Positions 5,624-26,239 of a stretch of 64,000 nucleotides of DNA are shown piece after piece. Each line of letters opens with the position of its first letter. Position 1 is the first letter of the stretch. Made by a program: the position numbers and the translations under genes. The notes below the pieces were generated by a model that saw only the letters and a program-made list of their open reading frames with translations, did not search any database and was not told where the DNA came from. Source of the stretch: Synechococcus sp. UW140 (GTDB lineage: Bacteria > Pseudomonadota > Gammaproteobacteria > Burkholderiales > Burkholderiaceae_C); assembly GCA_943370375.1 (NCBI GenBank), contig CALRQR020000012.1, positions 4,968 to 68,967 on the forward strand. Direction: 5' to 3'.

Positions 5624-6841
5624 TCAATCCCAGGAAAGCGCACCACCGGACTGGTACTCGATCACACGGGTTTCAAAGAAGTTGCGCTCTTTCTTCAGGT
5701 CGATCATTTCGCTCATCCACGGAAACGGATTCTCCTCGTTGGGGAAGAGAGTTTCAAGTCCGATCTGCGTGGCGCGGCGATTGGCAATGTAGCGGAGATA
5801 GCCTTTGAACATGGATGCATTGAGGCCGAGCACGCCGCGCGGCATGGTGTCTTCGGCGTAGCGGTATTCCAGTTCGACGGCTTTCATGAACAAGGCCTTG
5901 ATCTCGGCCTTGAACTCTGCGGTCCAGAGATGGGGGTTTTCCAGCTTCAGCTGGTTGATCAGGTCGATGCCGAAGTTGCAGTGCATCGACTCGTCGCGCA
6001 GGATGTATTGGTATTGCTCGGCAGCGCCGGTCATCTTGTTCTGGCGGCCCAGGGCAAGAATCTGCGTGAAGCCCACATAGAAGAACAGGCCCTCCATCAG
6101 GCAGGCAAACACGATCAGCGACTTGAGCAGGGTCTGGTCGGCTTCGGGCGTACCGGTCTTGAAGTGGGGGTTGGAGATGACTTCAATGAAGGGGATCAGG
6201 AACTGGTCCTTGTCCTTGATGGACTGGACTTCGTTGTAGGCGTTGAAGATCTCGGCTTCGTCCAGGCCCAGCGACTCAGTGATGTACTGATAGGCATGGG
6301 TGTGGATGGCCTCTTCGAAAGCCTGGCGCAACAGGAACTGGCGGCATTCGGGCGCCGTGATGTGGCGATAGGTGCCCAGCACGATGTTGTTGGCGGCCAG
6401 CGAATCGGCGGTCACGAAGAAACCCAGGTTGCGCTTGACCAGACGGCGCTCGTCTTCGGTCAGGCCGTTAGGGTCTTTCCAGAGCGCGATGTCGCGCGTC
6501 ATGTTCACTTCCTGCGGCATCCAGTGGTTGGCGCAGGTGGCGAGGTATTTTTCCCAGGCCCATTTGTATTTGAACGGCACCAGCTGGTTGACGTCGGTCT
6601 GGCCGTTGATGATGCGCTTGTCGGAGGCCTTGACGCGGTGCGCCTTGGCAGGTTCGGCGGCGATGGGGGCCGCAACTTGCGCAGGTGTGAACGCGCCGTC
6701 GTTGAGCATGCGCACTTGCGCTTGGGGTTGCTCGGCGGTGTTCAAAGAAAGAGGCGGAAGTTCCATCGAGCGGCCTTCGGGCGTGCCGCTGTTATGAGAT
6801 GTTTGCAACGATGGTTTGACTTCTTCGTCCCAGGTCAACAT
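5624..6841 (-). CDS. nrdB: ribonucleoside-diphosphate reductase beta subunit (class Ia, Pseudomonas-type long N-terminus)
   Basis: Di-iron ligand context [12 protein letters not shown] and [10 protein letters not shown]. The protein starts MLTWDEE at the ATG at 6841. Confidence 0.95.
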
Positions 6842-6973: not shown

Positions 6974-9883
6974 TTATTGGCAGGCCTCGCATCCCGGGTC
7001 ATCGATCGCGCAGAATTTGATGTCGGTCGCAGGCGTTGCGTTCATCTGCGCTTGCGCTGCGGCGGCTGCTGCTTCGAGTGCGCTCATGCCGCTGCTCGCA
7101 GTTGCCGTGCTCGATGACACCGAGTTCATCTTGCCCGCGGTCACGGTCGATTTCTCGGCGTGCGTCGCGCTCTGGGTGCGCAGGTAGTAGGTGGTCTTCA
7201 GGCCGCGCAGCCAAGCCAGCTTGTAGGTGTCGTCGAGCTTCTTGCCCGAGGCGCCCGCCATATAGATATTGAGGGACTGGGCCTGGTCGATCCATTTCTG
7301 GCGGCGCGCTGCAGCCTCCACCAGCCAGGAGGTTTCTACTTCAAACGCGGTGGCGTACAGCGCCTTGACGTCTTGCGGCACGCGGTCGATGGGGCGCAGC
7401 GATCCGTCAAAGTGCTTCAGGTCCACCACCATCACGTCGTCCCACAGATTCAAGCGCTTGAGGTCACGCACCAGGTAGTGGTTGATGACCGTGAATTCGC
7501 CGGACAGGTTGGACTTGACCGAGAGGTTGCCGAAGCAGGGCTCGATACAGGCGTCCACGCCGATGATGTTGGAGATGGTGGCCGTGGGGGCGATGGCGAC
7601 GCAGTTGGAGTTGCGCATGCCGTCCTTGGCGATCTTCTTGCGCAGGGCTTCCCAGTCCAGCGTGGCGGAACGGTCGACTTCCACATAACCACCGCGTTGC
7701 TCGGCCAGCATGTCCAGCGTGTCCAGGGGCAGGACGCCCTTGTCCCAGAGCGAACCCTTGTAGCTGGCGTACTTGCCGCGCTCTTTGGCCAGCTCGGTGG
7801 AGGCCCAGTAGGCGTGGTAGCAGACGGCTTCCATGGATTTGTCGGCGAACTCGACGGCTTCTTGCGAGGCGTAAGGCACGCGCAGCTCGTACAGGCAATC
7901 CTGGAAGCCCATGATGCCCAGGCCGACGGGGCGGTGGCGCATATTGGAGTCGCGGGCCTTCTTGACGGCGTAGTAGTTGATGTCGATCACGTTGTCCAGC
8001 ATGCGCATGGCCGTGGTGATGGTTTTCTTGAGTTTTTCGTGGTCGACTGCGCCGTCCTTCAAATGCTGGACGAGGTTGACCGAGCCGAGGTTGCAGACGG
8101 CGGTTTCGGTGTCGCTGGTGTTGAGCGTGATCTCGGTGCACAGGTTGGACGAGTGCACGACGCCGGTGTGCTGCTGCGGCGAGCGCACATTGCAGGCGTC
8201 CTTGAAGGTGATCCAGGGATGGCCGGTTTCAAACAGCATCGACAGCATCTTGCGCCACATGTCGGTGGCCTGCAGCTTGCGGGACGGCTTGATCTCGCCG
8301 CGCTCGGCCTTGGCTTCGTAAGCGGTGTAGATTTTCTCGAAGTCCTTGCCGAACTTGTCATGCAGGTCAGGTGTGTCGGACGGTGAGAACAGCGTCCAGG
8401 TGCCCTTTTCCATCACGCGGCGCATGAAGAGGTCGGGGATCCAGTTGGCAGTATTCATGTCGTGCGTGCGGCGGCGGTCGTCGCCGGTGTTCTTGCGCAG
8501 TTCCAGGAACTCTTCAATATCCAGGTGCCAGGTTTCCAGGTAGGCGCAGACGGCGCCCTTGCGCTTGCCGCCCTGGTTGACCGCCACGGCGGTGTCGTTG
8601 ACGACCTTCAGGAAAGGCACGACGCCTTGCGACTCGCCGTTGGTGCCCTTGATATGGGCGCCCAGGGCGCGCACGGGTGTCCAGTCATTGCCCAGGCCGC
8701 CGGCAAATTTGGACAGCAGGGCGTTCTCTTTGATGGCGTCGTAGATGCCGCCCAGGTCGTCGGCGACGGTCGTCAGGTAGCACGACGACAGCTGCGAGCG
8801 CAGCGTGCCGGCATTGAACAGGGTGGGCGTGCTCGACATGAAGTCGAAGGACGACAGGATTTCGTAGAACTCGATCGCGCGCTCTTCGCGGTTGATTTCA
8901 TTCAGCGACAGGCCCATCGCCACGCGCATGAAGAAAGCCTGTGGCAGCTCGATACGCTGCTTGCGCACGTGCAGGAAGTAGCGGTCAAACAGGGTCTGCA
9001 GACCGAGGTAGTCGAACTTCAGGTCGCGTTCGGGCTTGAGCGCTGCGCCCAGGCGGGCCAGATCGAACTGCTGCAGTTTTTCGTCGAGCAGTTCGTTTTG
9101 CACGCCCTTGGCGATGAACTGAGGGAAGTATTCGGCATAACGAATCGCCATGTCTGCCTGGTTGACTTCTTCGCCCAGCACTTCGCGGCGGATGGTGTGC
9201 ATCAAGAGGCGCGCGGTGGCGTAGGTGTAGTCAGGGTCTTTTTCGATCAGCGTGCGGGCGGCGAGGATGGACGCCTTGTAGACCTCGTCGATGGGAACGC
9301 CGTCGTAAAGGTTGCGCATGGTTTCCGCAACGATGGGGTCGGGTTTGACGTCGGCGCCCAGGTTGGCGCAAGACGCTTCAATCAGCGCCTGCAGGTTGCG
9401 CACGTCGAGCGCGACGCGGTTGCCGCGGTCGGTCACGTGGATCAGGGGCGCTGCGGGCGCCGTGGTTTGCGGCTGGCGTGCGCGCTCTTGCGTGCGCTTT
9501 TCGCGGTACAGCACGTAGGCTCGGGCAATCTCGTGGTGGCCGCCGCGCATCAGGCCCAGCTCGACCTGGTCTTGCACGTCTTCTATATGAAAGGTGCCGC
9601 CGCCCGGGCGCGAACGCATCAGGGCGCGGATGACCGCCTGGGTCAGGCCGTCAACCGTTTCGCGAACGCTGGCAGATGCCGCACCTTGGGTGCCGTGGAC
9701 GGCGAGGAAGGCCTTCATCATGGCCACGGCAATCTTGTTGGGCTCGAAGGGCACCACGCCGCCATTGCGGCGAATGATCTGGTAGTGGGCGAGGGGGTTG
9801 GATTGTGCGTTGGTGTCGCTTGCTGCGGGATTGCCTGCCAGAACGCCGGACGTTGCTGGCACCGCGTGTTGTGCTGTTTGCAT
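6974..9883 (-). CDS. nrdA: ribonucleoside-diphosphate reductase alpha subunit
   Basis: 969 aa with an N-terminal ATP-cone region, active-site NLCTEI and a C-terminal CEACQ redox tail. Confidence 0.96.
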   Translation of the reverse strand: MQTAQHAVPATSGVLAGNPAASDTNAQSNPLAHYQIIRRNGGVVPFEPNKIAVAMMKAFLAVHGTQGAASASVRETVDGLTQAVIRALMRSRPGGGTFHIEDVQDQVELGLMRGGHHEIARAYVLYREKRTQERARQPQTTAPAAPLIHVTDRGNRVALDVRNLQALIEASCANLGADVKPDPIVAETMRNLYDGVPIDEVYKASILAARTLIEKDPDYTYATARLLMHTIRREVLGEEVNQADMAIRYAEYFPQFIAKGVQNELLDEKLQQFDLARLGAALKPERDLKFDYLGLQTLFDRYFLHVRKQRIELPQAFFMRVAMGLSLNEINREERAIEFYEILSSFDFMSSTPTLFNAGTLRSQLSSCYLTTVADDLGGIYDAIKENALLSKFAGGLGNDWTPVRALGAHIKGTNGESQGVVPFLKVVNDTAVAVNQGGKRKGAVCAYLETWHLDIEEFLELRKNTGDDRRRTHDMNTANWIPDLFMRRVMEKGTWTLFSPSDTPDLHDKFGKDFEKIYTAYEAKAERGEIKPSRKLQATDMWRKMLSMLFETGHPWITFKDACNVRSPQQHTGVVHSSNLCTEITLNTSDTETAVCNLGSVNLVQHLKDGAVDHEKLKKTITTAMRMLDNVIDINYYAVKKARDSNMRHRPVGLGIMGFQDCLYELRVPYASQEAVEFADKSMEAVCYHAYWASTELAKERGKYASYKGSLWDKGVLPLDTLDMLAEQRGGYVEVDRSATLDWEALRKKIAKDGMRNSNCVAIAPTATISNIIGVDACIEPCFGNLSVKSNLSGEFTVINHYLVRDLKRLNLWDDVMVVDLKHFDGSLRPIDRVPQDVKALYATAFEVETSWLVEAAARRQKWIDQAQSLNIYMAGASGKKLDDTYKLAWLRGLKTTYYLRTQSATHAEKSTVTAGKMNSVSSSTATASSGMSALEAAAAAAQAQMNATPATDIKFCAIDDPGCEACQ

Positions 9884-16756: not shown

Positions 16757-18757
16757 TCACGCCGCCTTCAGCAGCGGCTTGGCCAGCCGGCTTGCATGCA
16801 GCCAGGCGCGGCGCAGCACCGCCGGCGAACGGGTCTCTTCCGGAATCAGCAGGTAGTTCTGAGCCCGCAGGGCCGTGCCCACGCCGACCTTGCTGGTGAG
16901 CACCGTCATCGGAATTGCCAGCAGCAGCGGCAGGCCGACCGGGATCAACCAGACCAGCGCGCGCGCATCGATCACGGCAATGCCAATGGCCAACAGCACG
17001 ATCACGCCCGACATGGGCGCCAGCTGCCTCAGCGCGTGGCGCCACGGCACGGCGGCCGCTTCGCGCGGCGGCGACTTCCATTCGAGCTTCAGGCCGGTCA
17101 GGGCCACCACCACAAACAGCGAATGCGCCAGCATGCGGATGGGCGCTTGCAGCAGCGCGATCAGGGTTTCGAGCAGTGCACTGCGCAACAGGCTGGCGGT
17201 GCCGCCGTAAGAGGCTTGCTGGCGGTTGACCAGCACGGCCACGATGCCCAGGATGCGCGGCAGGAACAGCATGCACAGCGTCCAGCCCCACAGCGCCATC
17301 AGCTCGCCGGGCAACAGCGTCCAGTCGGCAATCATGGGTGAGCCCGACAGCCACAGCGCCGTACCCAGCGTGAGGAAACAAAGCCACAGCGGCGCCGACA
17401 GATACGCCATCGCGCCGGTGCCGAACATCGAGCGGTGCACCGGGTGAATGCCCGGCTCGGCGATCAGGCGGGAGTTTTGCAGGTTGCCCTGGCACCAGCG
17501 GCGGTCGCGCTGCAGCTCGGCCAGCAAATCCGGCGGCTGCTGCTCGTAGCTGCCCACCAGGTCGCCCACCAGCCACACGTGGTAGCCGGCGCGGCGCATC
17601 AGCGCGGCCTCGACAAAATCGTGCGACATGATGCTGCCGGCCATGCCGCCCGTGCCCTTGATGTGCGCCAGCGCGCAGTGCTTCATGAAGGGCTCAATGC
17701 GGATGATGGCGTTGTGGCCCCAGTAGTGGGACTCGCCCATCTGCCAGAACTGCATGCCCAGCGTAAAGAGGCGGCCTGTCACGCGCGAGGCAAATTGCTG
17801 CGCGCGTGCATGCAGGGTCACGTGGCCGATGGCCTGCGTGGCGGTCTGGATGATGCCGGCCTTGGGGTTCGCTTCCATCAGCTTGACCATGGAGACCAGG
17901 CAGTCGCCGCTCATCACGCTGTCGGCGTCCAGCACCACCATGTAGCGGTAGTCCTTGCCCCAGCGGCGGCAAAAGTCCGCCACATTGCCGGCCTTGCGGT
18001 CGGTGCGGCGTTTGCGCAGGCGGTAATACACCTCGATCTGCGGCTGGTCCGGGCGGCCTGCCAATTGCGTGCGCAGGTCTTCCCACGCGGCGCGCTCGGC
18101 CTTGATGATGGCCGGGTTGTTGCTGTCCGACAGCACGAACACGTCAAAACTTTGGACGTGGCCGGTCATTGCGACCGACTCGCAGGTGGCGCGCAGGCCG
18201 GCGAACACGGTGCGCACATCCTCGTTGCAGATCGGCATGATGATCGCGGTGCGGGTGGAGGCATCCAGCGGGACATGCTGGACTTTTTTGGCCGACAGCG
18301 CGTGCTTGTCGCCGTAAATCGTCACGTAAAAACCCATCATCGCCGTCATGAAGCCCGTCACCACCCAGGCTGACAGCAGCGCAAACAGGGTGATCTGGCC
18401 GTATTGCAGCCAGGCGTTGTCGTAGTCGGGCTGCATGTCGGCAAAGATGCTGGTCGCCAGCACCGTGCTGACCAGCGTCAGTATCAAAAATACCGCGCGG
18501 CGGCGCCTGGCTGCGCGCTGCCAGGGCTCGGGCCGCGGTGAGGGCAAGGGGCGCAGGGCAGCAGAGTCCGCCGCCTTGAACAGTGACAGCACGGGCAGCA
18601 GCAGGGCGGTTGCCATGCTGTTCCAGAAGCCGCGCCAGGGGCGCGGCGCCATCGAGCCGCGGTTCAGCGGCGGCGCCGTGACCGAATTCGGATGACGTTC
18701 CTCACGCAGGGGGCTGCGCGGGGCAGCGGTGGTCAGGGTGTGATCAGGTTGGTCCAT
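16757..18757 (-). CDS. opgH: glucans biosynthesis glucosyltransferase H
   Basis: GT2 core (IIMPICNEDV, VLDADSVMSGD, QRDRRWCQGNLQ) flanked by multiple TM helices. Confidence 0.93.
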   Translation of the reverse strand: MDQPDHTLTTAAPRSPLREERHPNSVTAPPLNRGSMAPRPWRGFWNSMATALLLPVLSLFKAADSAALRPLPSPRPEPWQRAARRRRAVFLILTLVSTVLATSIFADMQPDYDNAWLQYGQITLFALLSAWVVTGFMTAMMGFYVTIYGDKHALSAKKVQHVPLDASTRTAIIMPICNEDVRTVFAGLRATCESVAMTGHVQSFDVFVLSDSNNPAIIKAERAAWEDLRTQLAGRPDQPQIEVYYRLRKRRTDRKAGNVADFCRRWGKDYRYMVVLDADSVMSGDCLVSMVKLMEANPKAGIIQTATQAIGHVTLHARAQQFASRVTGRLFTLGMQFWQMGESHYWGHNAIIRIEPFMKHCALAHIKGTGGMAGSIMSHDFVEAALMRRAGYHVWLVGDLVGSYEQQPPDLLAELQRDRRWCQGNLQNSRLIAEPGIHPVHRSMFGTGAMAYLSAPLWLCFLTLGTALWLSGSPMIADWTLLPGELMALWGWTLCMLFLPRILGIVAVLVNRQQASYGGTASLLRSALLETLIALLQAPIRMLAHSLFVVVALTGLKLEWKSPPREAAAVPWRHALRQLAPMSGVIVLLAIGIAVIDARALVWLIPVGLPLLLAIPMTVLTSKVGVGTALRAQNYLLIPEETRSPAVLRRAWLHASRLAKPLLKAA

Positions 18758-20343
18758 GTTTCGCTTACGGTGTGGTTGTCGTGTTTGAGGAAGGCGCGCA
18801 GCTCAACAGGCTGGGCCGCGTTCAGCCGCTGCACGCGCAGCGTCATCCGCCATGCGCCAGTGGCGGGGTTTTTGTAGGCCAGGCTTTCCAGCACGCGGCC
18901 GTTGGCATTGGCACTGGAAACCGCTTCGACCCTGGCGTCCTCGGGCAGCGCATCCAGCGCCGGGCCGGCAAAGTCGATGACGTACTGGACCTGGTCCTTG
19001 AGGTCGGTTCCGGCCTTTGCGTAGCCGAAGCCGCGGCGCGATTGTGTCACCCAGCCGTTGGGCGGCAGCTGCTGGTTCTTGCCTTGCCAGCTGATTTGCC
19101 AGGCGATGTCCAGCGACTGGCCGGGCGCCGGCATTTTTTCTGGCACCCAATAGGCGGCCACGTTGTCGTGCGTTTCATCGGGCGTGGCAAATTGAAAGAG
19201 TTCGACGCGCCCGGCGCCCCAGTCGCCCATGGGCGTAACCCAGGCGCTGGGCCGCATCTCATAGCGGGCTTCGGTGTCTTCGTAGTTGGCAAAGGCGCGG
19301 TCGCGCTGCATCAGGCCAAAGCCCTTGAGCGACTTCATGGCGAAAGACGTCACCAGCGGAGATGCGGGGTTTTGCAGCGGGCGCCACAGCCATTCACCGT
19401 CGCCGGTGGCCATCATCAGGCCGTCGGAGTCGTGCACTTCGGGCCGGAAGTCACCGGGGCGGGGCTGGTTCTCGCCAAAGAAAAACATGCTCGTCAGCGG
19501 CGCGATGCCCAGCGAGGTGATGGGCGCGCTGTTGCCGGAGGTAGAGGCCGGGCGCATGAAGATGCGCGCCTGCACCTTCGTGGTGGTTTGCTCGCCGGCC
19601 TGGATGTCAAAGCGGTAGGCACCCGTCATGCGTTCCGAATCCATCACGGCATACACCGTCAGCTGTTTGCTGTCACCGCTGGGCTTTTGCAGCCAGAAAT
19701 CGGTGAAGCGGGGAAACTCTTCTTTGGCGCCGCCCGGGCCGCCGGCCGTGTCGACGGCCAGGCCGCGTGCCGAAAGGCCGTAGCGCTGGCCAGAGCCGAG
19801 GGCCCGGAAGTAGCTCGCACCGGTGAACACCACCAGCTCATCCTTGTAGGTGGGTGAGTTGAGGTTGCTGAAAAAGCGCACGCCGCCGTGGCCCAGGTCG
19901 CCCCAGGTCTCAGGTGACAGTTTGTTTTTTCCGAAATTAAAGGTAGCCGGGTCGTAGGGAAGGCGCTTCACGCCGCTTGTCGTGATTTCGTGAATGCGAA
20001 CCGAATCGCCATGCCGGCCGACGTGGAAAAAGTTCGCTTCAAAGGGCAGTTGGTCGGCGCGCCACAGCGTGCTGGCGGCATTGAAACGGATGTCGCGGTA
20101 GTCGTCGTATTCCATCTTCGCCAGCTCGGCAGGCACGGCGTGGGAGGCCTCGCGCCAAGGCGCTTGCGAGCGCTGGCGGGCGATTGCGGCCACATCGTCC
20201 AGGTCGAAGGCGTGCGCCTGACCCGCTGCGAGCGTCAGGACTGCAAGGCTTGCGCAGGCCGCGATACGGGCCCGCAGGAGGAAACTGGCGCGGCGGTTGC
20301 GGCTGCCGGAGGTGTTGAAAAAAGGCAGGAAAAAAGCTGGCAT
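18733..20343 (-). CDS. opgG: periplasmic glucans biosynthesis protein OpgG/OpgD family
   Basis: The mature region FDLDDVA...YDDYRDIRFN...GASYFRALG...YGLSARGLAVDT aligns with E. coli OpgG. It has a 45-aa signal peptide containing NRRASFLL. Confidence 0.93.
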   Translation of the reverse strand: MPAFFLPFFNTSGSRNRRASFLLRARIAACASLAVLTLAAGQAHAFDLDDVAAIARQRSQAPWREASHAVPAELAKMEYDDYRDIRFNAASTLWRADQLPFEANFFHVGRHGDSVRIHEITTSGVKRLPYDPATFNFGKNKLSPETWGDLGHGGVRFFSNLNSPTYKDELVVFTGASYFRALGSGQRYGLSARGLAVDTAGGPGGAKEEFPRFTDFWLQKPSGDSKQLTVYAVMDSERMTGAYRFDIQAGEQTTTKVQARIFMRPASTSGNSAPITSLGIAPLTSMFFFGENQPRPGDFRPEVHDSDGLMMATGDGEWLWRPLQNPASPLVTSFAMKSLKGFGLMQRDRAFANYEDTEARYEMRPSAWVTPMGDWGAGRVELFQFATPDETHDNVAAYWVPEKMPAPGQSLDIAWQISWQGKNQQLPPNGWVTQSRRGFGYAKAGTDLKDQVQYVIDFAGPALDALPEDARVEAVSSANANGRVLESLAYKNPATGAWRMTLRVQRLNAAQPVELRAFLKHDNHTVSETWTNLITP

Positions 20344-20355
20344 GCCATGACTAGG

Positions 20356-20370
20356 GCAAACCCTGTGCCA
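20356..20370 (-). promoter_or_regulatory. sigma-54 (-24/-12) promoter directed into opgG
   Basis: The minus strand reads TGGCAC-AGGGT-TTGC, an exact match to TGGCAC-N5-TTGC. The GC of the -12 element is at 20357/20356 and the opgG ATG starts at 20343. Confidence 0.7.
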
Positions 20371-20389
20371 GTTTCAAAAAACTGTTTTA

Positions 20390-20402
20390 AATCAATGGCT
20401 TG
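20390..20402 (+). promoter_or_regulatory. IHF core site candidate
   Basis: AATCAATGGCTTG is a perfect WATCAANNNNTTR. It lies between the sigma-54 element and the upstream palindromes. A second perfect core, AATCAAAGGCTTA, is at 20514-20526 inside a 26-bp direct repeat. Confidence 0.5.
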
Positions 20403-20463
20403 GAAGTGATACCTGACATAACCAAATGTAATCAGACTCAGATGCGGCGAGAACCGCGTTTTT

Positions 20464-20481
20464 TGTCGCCAATCAGCGACA
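20464..20481. promoter_or_regulatory. GlrR-type enhancer site 1 (TGTC-N10-GACA)
   Basis: TGTCGCCAATCAGCGACA is a perfect TGTCGC-N6-GCGACA palindrome, about 100 bp upstream of the -24 element. Confidence 0.6.
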
Positions 20482-20530
20482 CGTTTCAGTGGCGAGTGAA
20501 TTAAACCGTTTTAAATCAAAGGCTTAAGGC

Positions 20531-20548
20531 TGTCGCCGGAGAGCGACG
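20531..20548. promoter_or_regulatory. GlrR-type enhancer site 2
   Basis: TGTCGCCGGAGAGCGACG has the same arms with one mismatch. A GCGACA half-site follows at 20564-20569. Confidence 0.5.
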
Positions 20549-20589
20549 GCGCGCTGCGAGGTAGCGACAAATCCGGTGAGACCCCGGCA

Positions 20590-21954
20590 CTAGGCCTTGA
20601 AGTGGCCCGGCGTCAGCCCGTGCTTTTGCATCAGCCGGTAAAACTCGGTCCGGTTGCGGTCGGCCAGACGGGCCGCATCGGCCACGTTGCCGTCCGTCAG
20701 TTTGAGCAGGCCCACCAGGTAGTCACGCTCAAAGTGCTGCTTGGCTTCGGCAAAAGTGAGCACCTGCACGCTGGGGGAGCGCAGCGCCCGCTGAACCAGC
20801 GCCAGCGGCACCAGCGGTGTGGTCGACAGCGCGCAGACCTGCTCCACGACGTTGTAGAGCTGACGCACGTTGCCCGGCCAGGCGGCGGTGGTCAGGGCCT
20901 TGAGGGCTTCGGGCGCGAAGCCGCTCAGGCGCTTGTCGTACTTGGCCGCCAGCTTCAAGAGGAAGTGGTTGGCCAGCAGCGGAATGTCTTCGCGCCGCTC
21001 CGACAGCGGCGGCAGGGTCAGCGTGACCACATTGAGCCGGTAATACAGGTCGGCGCGGAACTGGCCCTCGGCCATGGCGGCGTCCAGGTCGCGGTGCGTG
21101 GCCGAGATGATGCGCACGTCCACCGGAATCGACTGGCTGGAGCCCAGCGGCCGCACCACGCGCTCTTGCAGCACACGCAGCAGCTTGACCTGCAGCGCAG
21201 GCGGCATGTCACCGATCTCGTCGAGCAGCAAGGTGCCGCCGTCGGCCGCCTGGAAGAGGCCTTTGTGGTTGGCCACCGCGTCGGTGAAGGCGCCCTTGAC
21301 GTGGCCGAACAGCTCGGACTCGAGCAGGGCTTCAGGAATGGCGCCGCAATTGACCGCGATGAAGGGCTTGCTGGCCCGCGCGCCACCCTGGTGGATGGCC
21401 TGGGCGAGCAGCTCTTTGCCGGTGCCGCTTTCGCCGCGCAGCAGCACGCTGGCGTCTGATTGCGCCACCATGCGTGCTTCGGCCAATGCTTCGGCCATGC
21501 GGCTGGACCGGCTGATGATCTGGTTCTGCCAGGCTTCGGGGCTGCCCCGTCTGGCCGGGTTGGCGGGGGCGCTCAGCGCCAGCGCCTGGGCGATCTTGTC
21601 GAGCAGCCCCTTGCCGTCAAAAGGCTTGGTGAGGTAGGTAAACACACCGCGCTCGGTCGCTTCCACGGCGTCGGGGATGGTGCCGTGTGCGGTCAGCAAG
21701 ATCACGGGAAGCGACGGGTGTTGCTGGCGGATATCGTCAAAGAGCGCCAGGCCGTCGCGCCCGGGCAGGCGCACATCGCTGAGCACCAGCTGCGGCCGCT
21801 CGATATGCAATTGCGTGAGCGCGGCTTCGGCCGACGTGACGGCGGTCACGCGGTAGCCCGCTGCCGTGAGCCGCATGGTGAGCAGGCGCAGCATGTCCGC
21901 ATCGTCATCCACGACGAGCAGGTGCGGCGATATGGCGCTGGCGGAATCGGTCAT
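20590..21954 (-). CDS. glrR: sigma-54-dependent response regulator, GlrR/QseF orthologue
   Basis: Collinear with E. coli GlrR from memory: REC (LLVVDDD...SDVRLPGRDG), AAA+ (GESGTGKE, ESELFGHVKGAFT) and HTH (GNVADAARLADRNRTEFYRLMQKHGL). Confidence 0.85.
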   Translation of the reverse strand: MTDSASAISPHLLVVDDDADMLRLLTMRLTAAGYRVTAVTSAEAALTQLHIERPQLVLSDVRLPGRDGLALFDDIRQQHPSLPVILLTAHGTIPDAVEATERGVFTYLTKPFDGKGLLDKIAQALALSAPANPARRGSPEAWQNQIISRSSRMAEALAEARMVAQSDASVLLRGESGTGKELLAQAIHQGGARASKPFIAVNCGAIPEALLESELFGHVKGAFTDAVANHKGLFQAADGGTLLLDEIGDMPPALQVKLLRVLQERVVRPLGSSQSIPVDVRIISATHRDLDAAMAEGQFRADLYYRLNVVTLTLPPLSERREDIPLLANHFLLKLAAKYDKRLSGFAPEALKALTTAAWPGNVRQLYNVVEQVCALSTTPLVPLALVQRALRSPSVQVLTFAEAKQHFERDYLVGLLKLTDGNVADAARLADRNRTEFYRLMQKHGLTPGHFKA

Positions 21955-22601
21955 GGTGCGGCGGGCCGGGTTCGGCCGGCGGCAGGCGCCGAGGCCGGGG
22001 CGGCGGGCGGGCGGCTGGTCAGGCTGCGTTCAATCGCCTTGAGCGCTTCCAGCCGCTCGTTGGTTTGGTCCAGCCTGCGCTGTACGTCGCGCAGCTGCTG
22101 GGTTTGTTTGTCCAGTTGTTCTTCCAGGCGGCGCTGCTCGGCATAGCGCGACGCCAGCAGCCGGGCCAGCGGGTGCAGCGCCTGGGCGTCGGCATTGCCC
22201 AGCACGCGGGCCAGCAATTCCTGGGCGCGAATCAGCTCGGGCAACTGACGCAGCTGGCTCAGCACCAGCGACAGTTGAATCTGGGCTTCGGGGCTGGCGG
22301 CGTCGCCCAGCCGGGCGGCTTCCTGCGTGAGGTCGGCCGGCGGCATGACGCGCACGCGCTCGGCATAGGCCAGCATGCGCAGCGTCATGCCGCTGGCAAA
22401 CACCACGGCCTCGGGCAGTGGTGTGGGAGGGCTGGTGCTGGCCCGCGCGGCCTCTGCGGCAGAGGCCGCGGCCCGGGCTGCCTGAACGGCTGCGGCGTCA
22501 GGGGTGCGCTCGGGGGCAGGGCCGCTGCTGCACGCGGCCAGCAAGGCCGCCGTCGTCAGGGTTGCCAGCAGGCGAGGGGAAAAATCAGTACTTGGAAACA
22601 T
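21951..22601 (-). CDS. QseG/YfhG-like lipoprotein
   Basis: Lipobox LLAAC|S, an Ala/Gln/Leu-rich coiled-coil body, and the same position between kinase and regulator as E. coli yfhG (qseG). Confidence 0.65.
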   Translation of the reverse strand: MFPSTDFSPRLLATLTTAALLAACSSGPAPERTPDAAAVQAARAAASAAEAARASTSPPTPLPEAVVFASGMTLRMLAYAERVRVMPPADLTQEAARLGDAASPEAQIQLSLVLSQLRQLPELIRAQELLARVLGNADAQALHPLARLLASRYAEQRRLEEQLDKQTQQLRDVQRRLDQTNERLEALKAIERSLTSRPPAAPASAPAAGRTRPAAP

Positions 22602-24006
22602 GGGGTAGCTCTATTCTGAAGTGTGCACCAGGCTGGTCCGGCATCAGGGAGATGCTTCCGCCGTGCGCGGCAATGTATTCATGGACGATGGAAAGGCCAA
22701 TCCCGCTGCCGCGCACCACGTCGGTGGGCTGGCGTTCGCCGCGGTAGAAGGGCTCGAATATGCGCTCGCGGTCGCCTTCGGCCACACCCACGCCCTGGTC
22801 GTGGATGTCGATGCGGGCAAAGCCGTGCTGGTGGCTCAGCTCGAGGCGGATCAAGCCCTTGGCCGGCGAGTAGCGGATGGCGTTGGACAGCAGGTTGGCC
22901 AGCGCCGTACCGATTTTTTCGGTGTCGATTTCCATCAGCAGCGGCTCACCGACGACGGTGACGGCCAATTCCTTGGCGCGCCACTGCAGTCGCTGCGCAT
23001 AGACCTGCTCTTCCAGCACCTGCAGCAGATCGACGCTTTGGCGGCGCAGCTGGCGCGCCTCGAAGGCGGCGGTGTTAAAGCGCAGCAGGTCTTCGATCTG
23101 GCTTTGCAGCACGCCCGTGTTGTGTTTGAGGATTTGCGCGATCTCGCGCTGGTCGCTGGTCAGCGTGCCGGCCACGCCGTCTTCGAGCAGGGACACGCCT
23201 TCGCGCAGCGAAGCCAGCGGCGTCTTGAGCTCGTGCGAGATGTGGCGCAAAAAGCGCGACTTGTCGGCGTCCAGCTCGACCAGCCGCAGGCGCAGCCAGT
23301 TCAGCCGCTGCCCGACCAGCGCCAGGTCGGCCGGGCCCTGGATGGCGATGACCTGGTCAAGGCGGTTTTCGCCCAGGCCGACGATGGCGTTTTCCAGGCG
23401 CCGCAGCGGCAGCGTGAACCACACGCCGAAAGCCAGCGCCATGGCCACCGCCAGCACGATGGCCCAGGTGACTTGCTGCGTCAGCTGCTGCCGGCTGGCC
23501 TCGAGCTTGCCTTCCAGCGACTTGTTGCGCTGCTGGATGGCTTGCTGAACCTGTACCGCGATGGCGGCGTTGATGGCCTCCAGTTCGCGAAACTCCTGCG
23601 CGAGCTGGCGTTCGCGCTCCAGCGCGGTGTCGGGCGGGCCGGTCAGCAGGCCGGCAATGGCCTGCAGGTGGGCGCGCCACTGCCGGGCCTTCGCCACGGG
23701 GATGTCTTCGCGGGCCAGGCCGTCCAGGATTTCGGTGGTCTCGCGCACTTCTTCGCCAAAGCGGCCCCTGAGCACCCGGTCGTCCAGCACGACGGACTGC
23801 CGCGAGGTGCGCTCCATCGAAAGGCTGCGCTCGCTAAGCGACTGCGCCGCGCCGCTGAGATCCAGCGCGCGTGCGGCATTGCTGCGACTTTGCTGCGTGA
23901 GGTCTTCCAGGGTGAACAGGGCACGCAGCGAGGCGGCGCCCAGCAGTGCGGCGATCAGCAGGAAAGCGATCACCAGCAACTGGCGGAACGAGAATCTCTG
24001 CAGCAT
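22585..24006 (-). CDS. glrK: sensor histidine kinase, GlrK/QseE-like
   Basis: Two TM helices plus HAMP, an H-box FLRHISHELKTPL, and HATPase (NLLSNAIRYSP, GSGIGLSIVHEY). 473 aa, the same size class as GlrK. Confidence 0.8.
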   Translation of the reverse strand: MLQRFSFRQLLVIAFLLIAALLGAASLRALFTLEDLTQQSRSNAARALDLSGAAQSLSERSLSMERTSRQSVVLDDRVLRGRFGEEVRETTEILDGLAREDIPVAKARQWRAHLQAIAGLLTGPPDTALERERQLAQEFRELEAINAAIAVQVQQAIQQRNKSLEGKLEASRQQLTQQVTWAIVLAVAMALAFGVWFTLPLRRLENAIVGLGENRLDQVIAIQGPADLALVGQRLNWLRLRLVELDADKSRFLRHISHELKTPLASLREGVSLLEDGVAGTLTSDQREIAQILKHNTGVLQSQIEDLLRFNTAAFEARQLRRQSVDLLQVLEEQVYAQRLQWRAKELAVTVVGEPLLMEIDTEKIGTALANLLSNAIRYSPAKGLIRLELSHQHGFARIDIHDQGVGVAEGDRERIFEPFYRGERQPTDVVRGSGIGLSIVHEYIAAHGGSISLMPDQPGAHFRIELPHVSKY

Positions 24007-24039
24007 GCGCGTAGGGTGCGTCAGCAGCGCGCTGGGGCG

Positions 24040-25383
24040 TCAGGCCGCAACAGCGACGTCCCGCGTGAGGACTTCGCCGCGCAGCGAGCGCTGCGTGGCC
24101 TGGGTGATGGTGATGTCCAGCATCTGGCCGATGAGGCGCGGCTGACCCTTGAAGTTGACCACGCGGTTGCACTCGGTGCGGCCCATGAGCTCGGTCGGGT
24201 CCTTGCGCGAAGCGCCTTCCACCAGAATGCGCTGCACCGTGCCCTGGCGGCTGGCGCTGATGGCGCGCACGCTGTCGTCAATGGTGGCTTGCAGGTGCTG
24301 CAGGCGCTTGAGCTTGACCTCGTGCGGCGTGTCGTCGTGCAGTGCGGCGGCGGGAGTGCCGGGGCGCGGGCTGTAGATAAAGCTGAATGACGTGTCGTAG
24401 CCGATCTCGTCGATCAGCTTCATCATCTTGCCGAAGTCGTCTTCGGTCTCGCCGGGAAAGCCGACGATGAAATCGCTGCTCATGGCCAGGTCCGGGCGAA
24501 TGGCGCGCAGCTTGCGGATGGTGCTTTTGTATTCCATGGCGGTGTAGCCGCGCTTCATCGCCATCAGGATGCGGTCCGAGCCGTGTTGCACCGGCAGGTG
24601 CAGGTGGTTCACCAGCTTGGGGAGCTTGGCATAGGCGTCGATCAGGCGCTGCGTGAACTCGTTAGGGTGGCTGGTGACGTAGCGGATGCGTTCGATGCCG
24701 GGAATGTCGGAGACGTATTCGAGCAAGGTCGCAAAATCGGCGATCTCGGCCGTGCCACCCATGGGACCGCGGTAGGCGTTGACGTTCTGGCCCAGCAGCG
24801 TGACTTCCTTGACGCCCTGGTCGGCCAGGCCGGCAACTTCGACCAGCACGTCCTCAAAGGGGCGCGAGACCTCTTCGCCGCGGGTGTAGGGCACCACGCA
24901 GTAGCTGCAGTATTTGGAGCAGCCTTCCATGATGCTGACGAAGGCGCTGGCGCCCTCGACGCGCGCCGGCGGCAGGTGGTCGAATTTTTCGATCTCGGGA
25001 AAGCTGATGTCGACCTGCGGCTTGCCCAGGCGGGCGCGGTTGGACAAGAGTTGCGGCAGGCGGTGCAGCGTCTGCGGGCCGAACACCACATCCACATACG
25101 GCGCGCGCTGGATGATGGCCGCGCCTTCCTGGCTGGCCACGCAGCCGCCCACACCGATCAGCACGCCCTTTTCTTTGAGGTGCTTGACGCGGCCCAGGTC
25201 GCTGAAGACTTTTTCCTGCGCCTTTTCTCGCACCGAGCAGGTGTTGAAGAGGATCAGGTCGGCCTGCTCCATGTCCTGCGTGGGCTCGTAACCCTCGGCG
25301 GCATGGAGCACATCGGACATCTTGTCCGAGTCGTACTCGTTCATCTGGCAGCCGAAGGTTTTGATAAAGACTTTTTTGCTCAT
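24040..25383 (-). CDS. miaB: tRNA-i6A37 methylthiotransferase
   Basis: [19 protein letters not shown]..., the radical-SAM [11 protein letters not shown] motif and a TRAM C-terminus. The start is at the ATG at 25383. Confidence 0.95.
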
Positions 25384-25440
25384 GATGTGCTGTCGGGGGC
25401 TGGATATCGGAGGGGCAGTGGCGGCGGCGGCCACCGTACT

Positions 25441-25488
25441 GCTATTAATTTAGGAGCTGCTTGCCCATGACCTGAAAGGGCTGGAGGC
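25441..25488 (+). repeat. Type-1 intergenic repeat, copy 3
   Basis: GCTATTAATTTAGGAGCTGCTTGCCCATGACCTGAAAGGGCTGGAGGC. Confidence 0.6.
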
Positions 25489-25532
25489 TGATTTCATGCA
25501 TGACCGCCGATGGGCGGCCGATGCGATGCCAA

Positions 25533-26000
25533 TTACTGCTTGTAGGCCGGCAACTGGTGGTACGGCGTCTTGCCGTCGTCCGCGGGCGCCGTGGTGCCGG
25601 AGCCGGTGGTGAAGTTGAAAAAGGTGTCCTTGTTGCCGGCACGCTTTTCCTTGGCTTCTTCGGGATTGAGGATCCACACGTCCTGCACCTGGCCCGTGTT
25701 GTTGCGCAGGTAGTTCACTACCAGTTTCTGGTTGAGAAACGGGCCGGACATCACAAAATTGTTGTTGATGTCGCGGATGCGCGCACCGACCGAGAGGCGG
25801 TCCTGCTTGCCGTCCATCGAGATCACCGGCGGCGCCAGGACCACCATTTCACCGCGCACGGCCTTGGGCGGAAATTTACGGACGTTGAGTTTGGCGGGCG
25901 CTTCCGGGTCGGTTTGCGCCAGGGCCGGCAGGCCCAGCAGGCCGGCAACGGCGGCCAGCGCCACGAGGAAGGGAGTCAGACGGGAATTGCAGCGGTTCAT
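25533..26000 (-). CDS. hypothetical secreted protein
   Basis: Signal peptide MNRCNSRLTPFLVALAAVAGLLGLPALAQT. The codon usage is gene-like. I recognise no family. Confidence 0.6.
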   Translation of the reverse strand: MNRCNSRLTPFLVALAAVAGLLGLPALAQTDPEAPAKLNVRKFPPKAVRGEMVVLAPPVISMDGKQDRLSVGARIRDINNNFVMSGPFLNQKLVVNYLRNNTGQVQDVWILNPEEAKEKRAGNKDTFFNFTTGSGTTAPADDGKTPYHQLPAYKQ

Positions 26001-26162: not shown

Positions 26163-26239
26163 TGGTGGTCGTAGGTGGACTTGAACCACCGACATCAGCA
26201 TTATGAATGCTGCGCTCTAACCAACTGAGCTATACGACC
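26163..26239 (-). tRNA. tRNA with CAT anticodon (elongator Met, or Ile2 if lysidinylated)
   Basis: The minus strand reads GGTCGTATAGCTCAGTTGGTTAGAGCGCAGCATTCATAATGCTGATGTCGGTGGTTCAAGTCCACCTACGACCACCA. It has a 7-bp acceptor stem, the anticodon loop TTCATAA and an encoded CCA. G1-C72 and a non-GGG anticodon stem exclude the initiator. Confidence 0.93.

Follow-up and report, generated by a model that had tools for sequence, protein, structure and literature searches.

A glmY-like GlrR/sigma-54 promoter-enhancer region predicted ahead of the periplasmic-glucan genes opgGH in Burkholderiales

Both the role and the signal of the QseE/QseG/QseF (GlrK/GlrR) system are debated, and its outputs are known in Enterobacteriaceae only (glmY, glmZ and rpoE). 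At both glmY and glmZ, three TGTC-N10-GACA sites lie over 100 bp upstream, two regions resembling integration host factor (IHF) sites flank the activator-binding site (ABS) termed ABS3, and E. coli glmY carries, in addition, an overlapping sigma-70 promoter (Gopel et al., 2011; PMC3045617). For E. coli rpoE, a QseF-dependent sigma-54 promoter has been reported (PMC6075780), and qseE-qseG-qseF clusters in Betaproteobacteria are known from a 2025 paper that is silent on their outputs (PMC12691602). We also considered Ralstonia PehR as a known betaproteobacterial output of GlrR and set it aside: the paper concerned only aligns PehR with GlrR, and PehR is a longer and different activator. Here we describe a 64,000-nucleotide (nt) stretch of contig CALRQR020000012.1 (assembly GCA_943370375.1, Synechococcus sp. 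UW140, placed in Burkholderiales by its GTDB lineage), called the window throughout, in which glrK-, qseG- and glrR-like genes are followed on the same strand, across an intergenic spacer of 246 bp, by the osmoregulated periplasmic glucan (OPG) genes opgG and opgH. The content of this spacer, together with its conservation, makes it very likely that opgGH is under GlrR/sigma-54 control, and we consider it likely, with only slightly less assurance, that the spacer as a whole is a glmY-like promoter-enhancer region for opgG-opgH whose predicted transcription start would leave the mRNA leaderless.

When positions are counted from the TGGCAC of the promoter element, the predicted regulatory region of the window and that of E. 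coli glmY are almost superimposable (Table 1). The activator family, its recognition helix and the TGTC-N10-GACA consensus are shared with glmY and glmZ of Enterobacteriaceae, and the order of elements (ABS, ABS, IHF, ABS, IHF, -24/-12) is shared with glmY. By our measurements, the E. coli glmY locus (L081; L numbers are our labels for compared loci) has its sites at -203, -170 and -107 and its IHF cores at -150 and -31, against -178 and -111 for the two putative GlrR sites and -156 and -32 for the two IHF cores of the window, with the outermost E. coli site standing opposite a half-site at -199; the sites of Pantoea glmY lie at -198, -165 and -102. The first transcribed base of E. coli glmY follows the -12 C by 13 nt, the same distance that is predicted in the window. 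There are also differences: glmY and glmZ yield sRNAs (small RNAs), whereas the window has a protein-coding biosynthetic operon, opgGH; the glmY promoter lies upstream of glrK, that of the window downstream of glrR; there are three full sites in glmY but two clear ones in the window, with an ABS2-ABS3 spacing of 63 bp in the former and 67 bp between the two palindromes of the latter; the overlapping sigma-70 promoter of glmY has no predicted counterpart; and in the window, which comes from a betaproteobacterium, the predicted +1 falls on the start codon.

Table 1. Predicted regulatory elements of the glrR-opgG spacer and the genes flanking it (offsets are from the TGGCAC of the promoter element)
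Feature	Coordinates	Strand	Sequence	Remarks
Sigma-54 promoter element	20370-20356	-	TGGCAC-AGGGT-TTGC, TGGCACAGGGTTTGC	Exact match
Proximal GlrR site (ABS3-like), putative	20464-20481	-	TGTCGCCAATCAGCGACA; minus-strand reading TGTCGCTGATTGGCGACA	-111; followed by an A-run
Distal GlrR site (ABS2-like), putative	20531-20548	-	TGTCGCCGGAGAGCGACG; minus-strand reading CGTCGCTCTCCGGCGACA	-178; one mismatch to TGTC-N10-GACA
Possible degenerate third GlrR site (ABS1-like)	20564-20569	-	TGTCGC	-199; half-site
Distal IHF core	20514-20526	+	AATCAAAGGCTTA	-156; matches WATCAANNNNTTR; between the two GlrR sites
Proximal IHF core	20390-20402	+	AATCAATGGCTTG	-32; matches WATCAANNNNTTR; between the ABS3-like site and the promoter
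Predicted transcription start	20343..20344	-		A of the opgG ATG (20343) or the preceding C; inferred
glrK/qseE-like sensor histidine kinase gene	22585..24006	-		HisKA and HATPase_c domains; syntenic position
qseG-like outer-membrane lipoprotein gene	21951..22601	-		LLAAC lipobox; between kinase and regulator genes
glrR/qseF orthologue (sigma-54 enhancer-binding response regulator)	20590..21954	-		Receiver, Sigma54_activat and AAA-lid domains
opgG/opgD-family (MdoG) gene	18733..20343	-		Pfam MdoG, 599 bits
opgH (mdoH) glucosyltransferase gene	16757..18757	-		NCBIfam MdoH NF003960, 1269 bits, above cut-off

The rpoE gene resembles opgGH in being a protein-coding target tied to envelope homeostasis and served by the same activator and sigma factor, but it encodes a regulator (sigma-E) and not a biosynthetic operon. 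The mRNA from its QseF-dependent promoter presumably has a leader. As for opgGH (mdoGH) itself, the E. coli operon is osmoregulated from a sigma-70 promoter, and mdoG of P. syringae has predicted RpoD and RpoE-like promoters (PMC3247240). These gammaproteobacterial loci have the same operon as the window, with its tie to envelope and osmotic state; the literature searched yielded no report linking opgGH/mdoGH to sigma-54 or GlrR.

An earlier note on this DNA had claimed that the spacer holds the sole exact TGGCAC-N5-TTGC of the window and that it is aimed at opgG, which a motif scan of the whole window bears out. The perfect TGTCGC-N6-GCGACA that it placed about 100 bp upstream is indeed exact and lies at -111, the window having no other exact TGTC-N10-GACA, and the second site of this type, placed at about 170 bp, is there at -178 with its one mismatch. 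The GCGACA that the same note reported farther out is present as well, but as a half-site only; a full third GlrR site was considered and rejected, because at -199 there is just the TGTCGC half, with a partner half that misfits the N10 spacing. The two IHF cores also stand, but the 26-bp repeats said to carry them do not: the direct repeats are a 23-nt pair of 91% identity (20379-20401 and 20503-20525, 124 bp spacing), which are the two IHF sites themselves, the former holding the proximal core and the latter the distal one. Shuffled versions of the window yield 0.39 exact sigma-54 matches and 0.73 exact palindromes, and once one or two mismatches are tolerated, both motifs are as frequent in the window as expected by chance. 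Because single motifs are not rare in 64 kb, the statistical weight comes from their arrangement and its conservation: what goes beyond chance is that they occur together in one 246-bp spacer, in one orientation, and with spacing conserved across genera.

This conservation was assessed in a scan of one genome per species, which returned 80 loci, the closest being that of a Polaromonas genome (92% GlrR identity). The order miaB-glrK-qseG-glrR-(opgG)-opgH is common to Polaromonas, Hydrogenophaga, Acidovorax, Variovorax, Ramlibacter, Rhizobacter, Rubrivivax and others, and in nearly all Burkholderiales loci the sigma-54 element lies 113-183 nt past the glrR stop codon, often with an identical AGGGT between its two halves. 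A gap-free alignment of the sequences on TGGCAC showed five blocks at fixed positions: TGTCGC-N6-GCGACA at about -178, AAG-N4-TTGATT (IHF) at about -156, a further GlrR site with its A-run at about -111, an IHF core at about -32, and the promoter. Among 36 non-redundant genome loci with opg genes downstream of glrR, drawn from Polaromonas, Variovorax, Hydrogenophaga, Acidovorax and other genera, the distal GlrR site, with at most one mismatch, occurs in every one and falls between -177 and -181 in 27 of them; the proximal site occurs in 35, at -110 to -113 in 29, and the spacing of the two sites is 67 bp. A strict distal IHF core (-160 to -125, mostly -155 to -159) is found in half of the loci (18/36), with near-matches in most others, and a strict proximal core at -28 to -36 in 22. 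Even the outer half-site has a counterpart, as (T/C)GTCGC recurs in relatives at about -200. An alignment of glrR-opgG spacers from related genomes, which the earlier note had proposed as a check, thus finds its motifs kept at fixed offsets. In many genomes the distal palindrome runs into the 3' end of glrR and contains its stop codon (TGTCGCCGAGTAGCGACA; e.g., L010 1635-1652, L027 7296-7313, and L007), which means that the sites GlrR is predicted to bind also encode its C-terminal tail. The glrR gene of the window ends earlier, and the corresponding sites, including the distal one, are non-coding.

The distance from the promoter to the opgG start codon is conserved as well. In the window, the ATG at 20343 follows the -12 C (20356) by 13 nt, and no other in-frame ATG, GTG or TTG comes before the signal peptide of OpgG. 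We examined 67 non-redundant loci in which a GlrR orthologue and a sigma-54 element occur with an Opg-type gene: in 55 of them, 12-15 nt separate the -12 C from the first in-frame ATG (exactly 13 nt in 45), and every one of these 55 loci uses ATG as its start codon. Position 1 of the Rfam GlmY model falls at the same distance, 13 nt after the -12 C in E. coli and 12 nt in Pantoea, and the glmY start mapped by Reichenbach et al. in 2009 is said to coincide with it. The 12 nt before the ATG are the downstream edge of the promoter itself, are variable in sequence (information content below 0.6 bit at each of positions 4-9) and contain no Shine-Dalgarno sequence, although position 12 is a C in 42 of 45 loci, giving with the following A the usual pyrimidine-purine context of a transcription start. 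Given that the spacing stays constant where the intervening sequence varies and even where another gene follows, transcription beginning at the start codon itself is the best explanation, and we lean, with some reserve, towards a leaderless opgGH transcript. Essentially no pairing is predicted for the first 36 nt of this RNA, whose fold is no stronger than that of shuffled controls (z = 0.52). The earlier note had suggested a start near 20344, with which the predicted geometry agrees, but had not drawn the leaderless consequence.

Leaderless mRNAs have been described in the same bacterial order: B. cenocepacia has 72 genes with a primary start exactly at the start codon (PMC4603805), and 4.67% of the primary starts of C. 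metallidurans are leaderless (PMC7563307). As predicted for the window, transcription in these sets begins at the start codon or a few nucleotides from it, and there is no Shine-Dalgarno sequence. They differ, however, in that both sets are tied to sigma-70-type motifs (a TA-rich one among them, directly upstream) and are enriched in transcription regulators, whereas the window has a -24/-12 sigma-54 element ahead of an exported enzyme, and in that their starts were mapped by dRNA-seq (differential RNA sequencing) whereas that of the window is predicted (PMC4603805, PMC7563307). Directly after the AUG, opgG codons 3-9 form a pyrimidine- and U-rich tract (GCUUUUUUCCUGCCUUUUUUC, 20317-20337, minus strand) in an otherwise G+C-rich genome, and in relatives from Polaromonas, Acidovorax and Hydrogenophaga the conserved M-x-A-F-F is likewise encoded by U-runs after the ATG. 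This tract could be an RNA-level feature of a leaderless start.

Metagenomes were scanned with a composite pattern consisting of the proximal site, a gap of 80-100 nt and the sigma-54 element. A GlrR orthologue lies immediately upstream in 61 of the 80 loci listed, and opgG, a small open reading frame (ORF) followed by opgH, or opgH alone lies downstream in 62; most of the remaining loci have BON-domain genes 3' of glrR. The composite architecture therefore reads as essentially a signature of the glrR-opg type of locus. On one contig (L159), two sites, an IHF core and a sigma-54 element precede opgG, and the gene upstream encodes an unrelated exported protein of 493 amino acids (aa). The retention of the enhancer at opgG without an adjacent glrR shows that it belongs to opgG and not to the 3' end of glrR. 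Six further loci (L094, L108, L118, L129, L130 and L141) show the composite pattern, but a recognisable glrR does not immediately precede it and the gene that follows is of neither the opg nor the BON type; in one of these, L130, two palindromes and an IHF-like core sit in AT-rich DNA. These six could represent additional members of the regulon in other taxa, and some could be matches by chance.

The gene that follows the promoter varies among lineages. In Variovorax, Xenophilus and Pseudacidovorax, opgG is absent between glrR and opgH, and an ATG still stands at 13 nt, where it opens a conserved ORF of 66-71 aa (MTALTSPSFALRPQRDGLRQK...DCVFKRFPAIGD...) ending 6-15 nt before the opgH ATG. This small ORF occurs in L009 (about 7592-7795), L005, L007, L010-L014, L017, L022 and L027 and at 21 metagenome loci; it matched no family in a Pfam search. 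Its differences are concentrated at third codon positions (569, against 321 and 301 at the other two), which suggests that it is coding. In Pseudorhodoferax, an ATG at 15 nt opens opgH itself. Rhizobacter- and Rubrivivax-type genomes retain opgG behind a leader of 40-60 nt with a hairpin, as in L030, L035 and L159. In these three (about 6340-6375, 2085-2115 and 1860-1900, respectively) the opgG leader has a G+C-rich hairpin and a T-run, for example GCGGCTCTTTGATGAGCCGCTTTTCAC; placed between the predicted sigma-54 promoter and opgG, the hairpin looks like a terminator or attenuator.

Farther afield, the target is a different gene altogether. In Herbaspirillum, Chitinimonas and Roseateles, the layout of GlrR sites, IHF cores and sigma-54 element 3' of glrR is followed by the gene for a small, exported protein with a BON domain (OsmY-like), whose leader of about 60 nt has a 5' hairpin and a clear Shine-Dalgarno sequence; TGGCAC lies at 7544 in L033, 7514 in L034, 7446 in L037, 7450 in L039, 7471 in L042 and 7474 in L043, and a BON-domain gene is the target in Oxalobacteraceae-, Roseateles- and Chitinimonas-type genomes. 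Thiobacillus- or Hydrogenophilales-type loci (L046 7440, L047 7429, L048 7440) have a sigma-54 element after glrR followed by the gene for a 55-aa DUF1328 membrane protein, whose E. coli homologue, ytjA, is a neighbour of osmY. In a Rhodocyclaceae genome (L040 3736, minus strand) and in Thauera (L044 3708, minus strand), an exact sigma-54 element and a TGTC-N10-GACA lie upstream of glrK and point away from it, towards a gene for a protein of about 200 aa (MFNKPN...RLIVGPDVKLKGAEILDCDTLVVEGRV), a 110-aa fragment of which gave no Pfam match. The local target is therefore interchangeable between lineages, and the targets identified are envelope-associated.

Within the window, the identity of the flanking genes is supported to differing degrees. 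The claim of a GlrR orthologue with a near-identical helix-turn-helix holds: the top NCBIfam model is GlrR (612 bits versus 413 for NtrC; equivalog cut-off 763), the protein is 57% identical to Pantoea GlrR, and its recognition helix reads RNRTEFYRL where that of Pantoea reads RNRTEFYKL. The accompanying claim of a QseG-like lipoprotein and GlrK upstream holds in part. The lipobox and the histidine kinase are there, but the lipoprotein has only weak C-terminal matches to QseG (NF007997, E 6e-5) and to Pfam YfhG (E 3.7e-4), both below curated cut-offs, and no GlrK-specific model is among the NCBIfam matches listed for the kinase, which shows 31% full-length identity to its counterpart at the Pantoea glmY-glrK-qseG-glrR locus. 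A lipoprotein gene between kinase and regulator is a hallmark of qseEGF clusters (PMC12691602). On the other side of the spacer, opgG and opgH overlap by 25 nt, and the N-terminus of OpgG (MPAFF...) leads into a signal peptide of 45 aa ending in AHA. Elsewhere in the window, a tRNA gene (26166-26239, minus strand) is the sole Rfam match at gathering threshold, and a one-mismatch sigma-54-like element (TGGCGCGCAGCTTGC, 24501-24515, plus strand) lies antisense inside miaB; many related loci have it at the corresponding position, probably as a consequence of coding conservation.

How firmly these observations point to control of opgGH depends on what else could account for them. Since the GlrR-dependent promoter beside glrK-qseG-glrR in Enterobacteriaceae makes an sRNA, and since a normal 5' untranslated region does not fit before opgG, the elements might be real and yet produce an sRNA or short transcript over the 5' end of opgG, an analogue of GlmY, with opgG itself transcribed in some other way. 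This is highly improbable. Searches with the Rfam models of GlmY and GlmZ (RF00128 and RF00083) found neither in the window at gathering threshold, neither at E<=1 in 18000-26000 and neither in seven betaproteobacterial loci, where other Rfam families were absent too, whereas the Pantoea control was recovered with 103.7 bits; across the spacer, the window and eight related loci, the only GlmY match was in that control, and the sRNA idea was rejected. The promoter is, moreover, followed by a conserved ORF with a fixed start position, the sequence after the ATG evolves as coding where opgG is absent, and in lineages that have a leader, it ends in a Shine-Dalgarno sequence with a protein gene next. 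No terminator is predicted in the glrR-opgG spacer, which again argues against a short transcript but leaves room for opgGH to be transcribed mainly by read-through from glrK-qseG-glrR. In such a scheme, or in one with an unrecognised sigma-70 promoter such as that overlapping E. coli glmY (PMC3045617), the sigma-54 element and the palindromes would serve glr autoregulation, a roadblock or insulator, or a poised but seldom used promoter, and the overlap of the distal palindrome with the glrR stop codon in many genomes would fit. We nevertheless judge this to be improbable, as no sigma-70-like promoter is predicted in the spacer, a read-through RNA would present the opgG AUG without a Shine-Dalgarno sequence, L159 retains the enhancer at opgG although glrR is not next to it, and the fixed distance of 12-15 nt between the -12 element and the ATG, across variable sequence, is unexplained unless initiation at that point matters.

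Greater weight, though still well short of an even chance, attaches to the possibility that the promoter depends on GlrR and sigma-54 while the mRNA is not functionally leaderless, with the start codon elsewhere or translation initiated by another route. Only a small fraction of the mRNAs of Proteobacteria is leaderless, and relatives of the window (L030, L035 and L159) do have a leader before opgG. What speaks against it in the window is that no other in-frame start codon precedes the charged region of the signal peptide, that the N-terminal M-x-A-F-F is conserved in the protein, that ATG is invariably used at the short-spacing loci, and that the first 36 nt of the RNA are predicted to be essentially unpaired. 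Several other points weigh against control of opgGH by GlrR and sigma-54, or against a leaderless mRNA. Individual motifs occur in the window at chance frequency; the strict IHF consensus is satisfied in only about half of the loci; and the loci compared share descent, so that their counts are not independent events. The metagenome pattern was built from the locus of the window, which biases the scan to that type of locus, and such a scan is unable to show the absence of other targets. The GlrR score falls under its NCBIfam equivalog cut-off, and the QseG match is weak. The target is the opgG-opgH pair in only part of the clade. Finally, no sigma-54-driven leaderless transcript was found in the literature searched, and the leaderless genes known in Burkholderiales carry a TA-rich sigma-70-type motif (PMC4603805).

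Set against these points, the direct control of opgGH by GlrR, IHF and sigma-54 that the earlier note had proposed is supported by phylogenetic footprinting, by the glmY-like offsets, by the recognition helix, by the metagenome pattern and by L159. Sequence and its comparison show the motifs, their conserved spacing and the position of the start codon; from these we infer that GlrR and IHF bind, that the promoter needs sigma-54, where exactly transcription starts and that translation is leaderless. The steps would combine as follows. GlrK, modulated by the QseG-like lipoprotein, would phosphorylate GlrR, and phospho-GlrR would bind at -178 and -111, where the two TGTCGC-N6-GCGACA sites lie, and possibly also to a third, degenerate site near -199. 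Bending of the DNA by IHF at the two conserved cores would allow the GlrR ATPase to contact sigma-54 RNA polymerase at TGGCAC-N5-TTGC, the promoter would open, and transcription would start at the A of the opgG ATG or 1-3 bases before it. The resulting opgGH mRNA would be leaderless, with no space for a Shine-Dalgarno sequence, and transcripts reading through from glrR would hold the opgG AUG internally, without a ribosome-binding site. In that case, efficient synthesis of OpgG would depend on initiation at the sigma-54 promoter.

If this is correct, only transcripts that start exactly at the sigma-54 promoter would give efficient translation of OpgG or, in Variovorax, of the small ORF. Activation of transcription would then also gate translation, through a sigma-54 promoter whose start site is the start codon, which would be an unusual design. 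A conserved and direct link to periplasmic glucans would give GlrK/GlrR a concrete output outside enteric bacteria, and the opg link, together with the OsmY-like BON link in sister lineages, would point to osmotic or envelope homeostasis as the core function of the system. That the targets vary by lineage among OPG synthesis, BON-domain (OsmY-like) and DUF1328 proteins suggests that periplasmic osmotic or envelope homeostasis may be the ancestral role of QseEGF. Taken together, we see an even chance that in Comamonadaceae GlrK-QseG-GlrR drives a leaderless mRNA from a sigma-54 promoter, coupling translation to promoter choice, and that periplasmic osmotic or envelope homeostasis is the ancestral task of the system, in which case the connection to glmY and glmZ in enterobacteria would have been acquired later.

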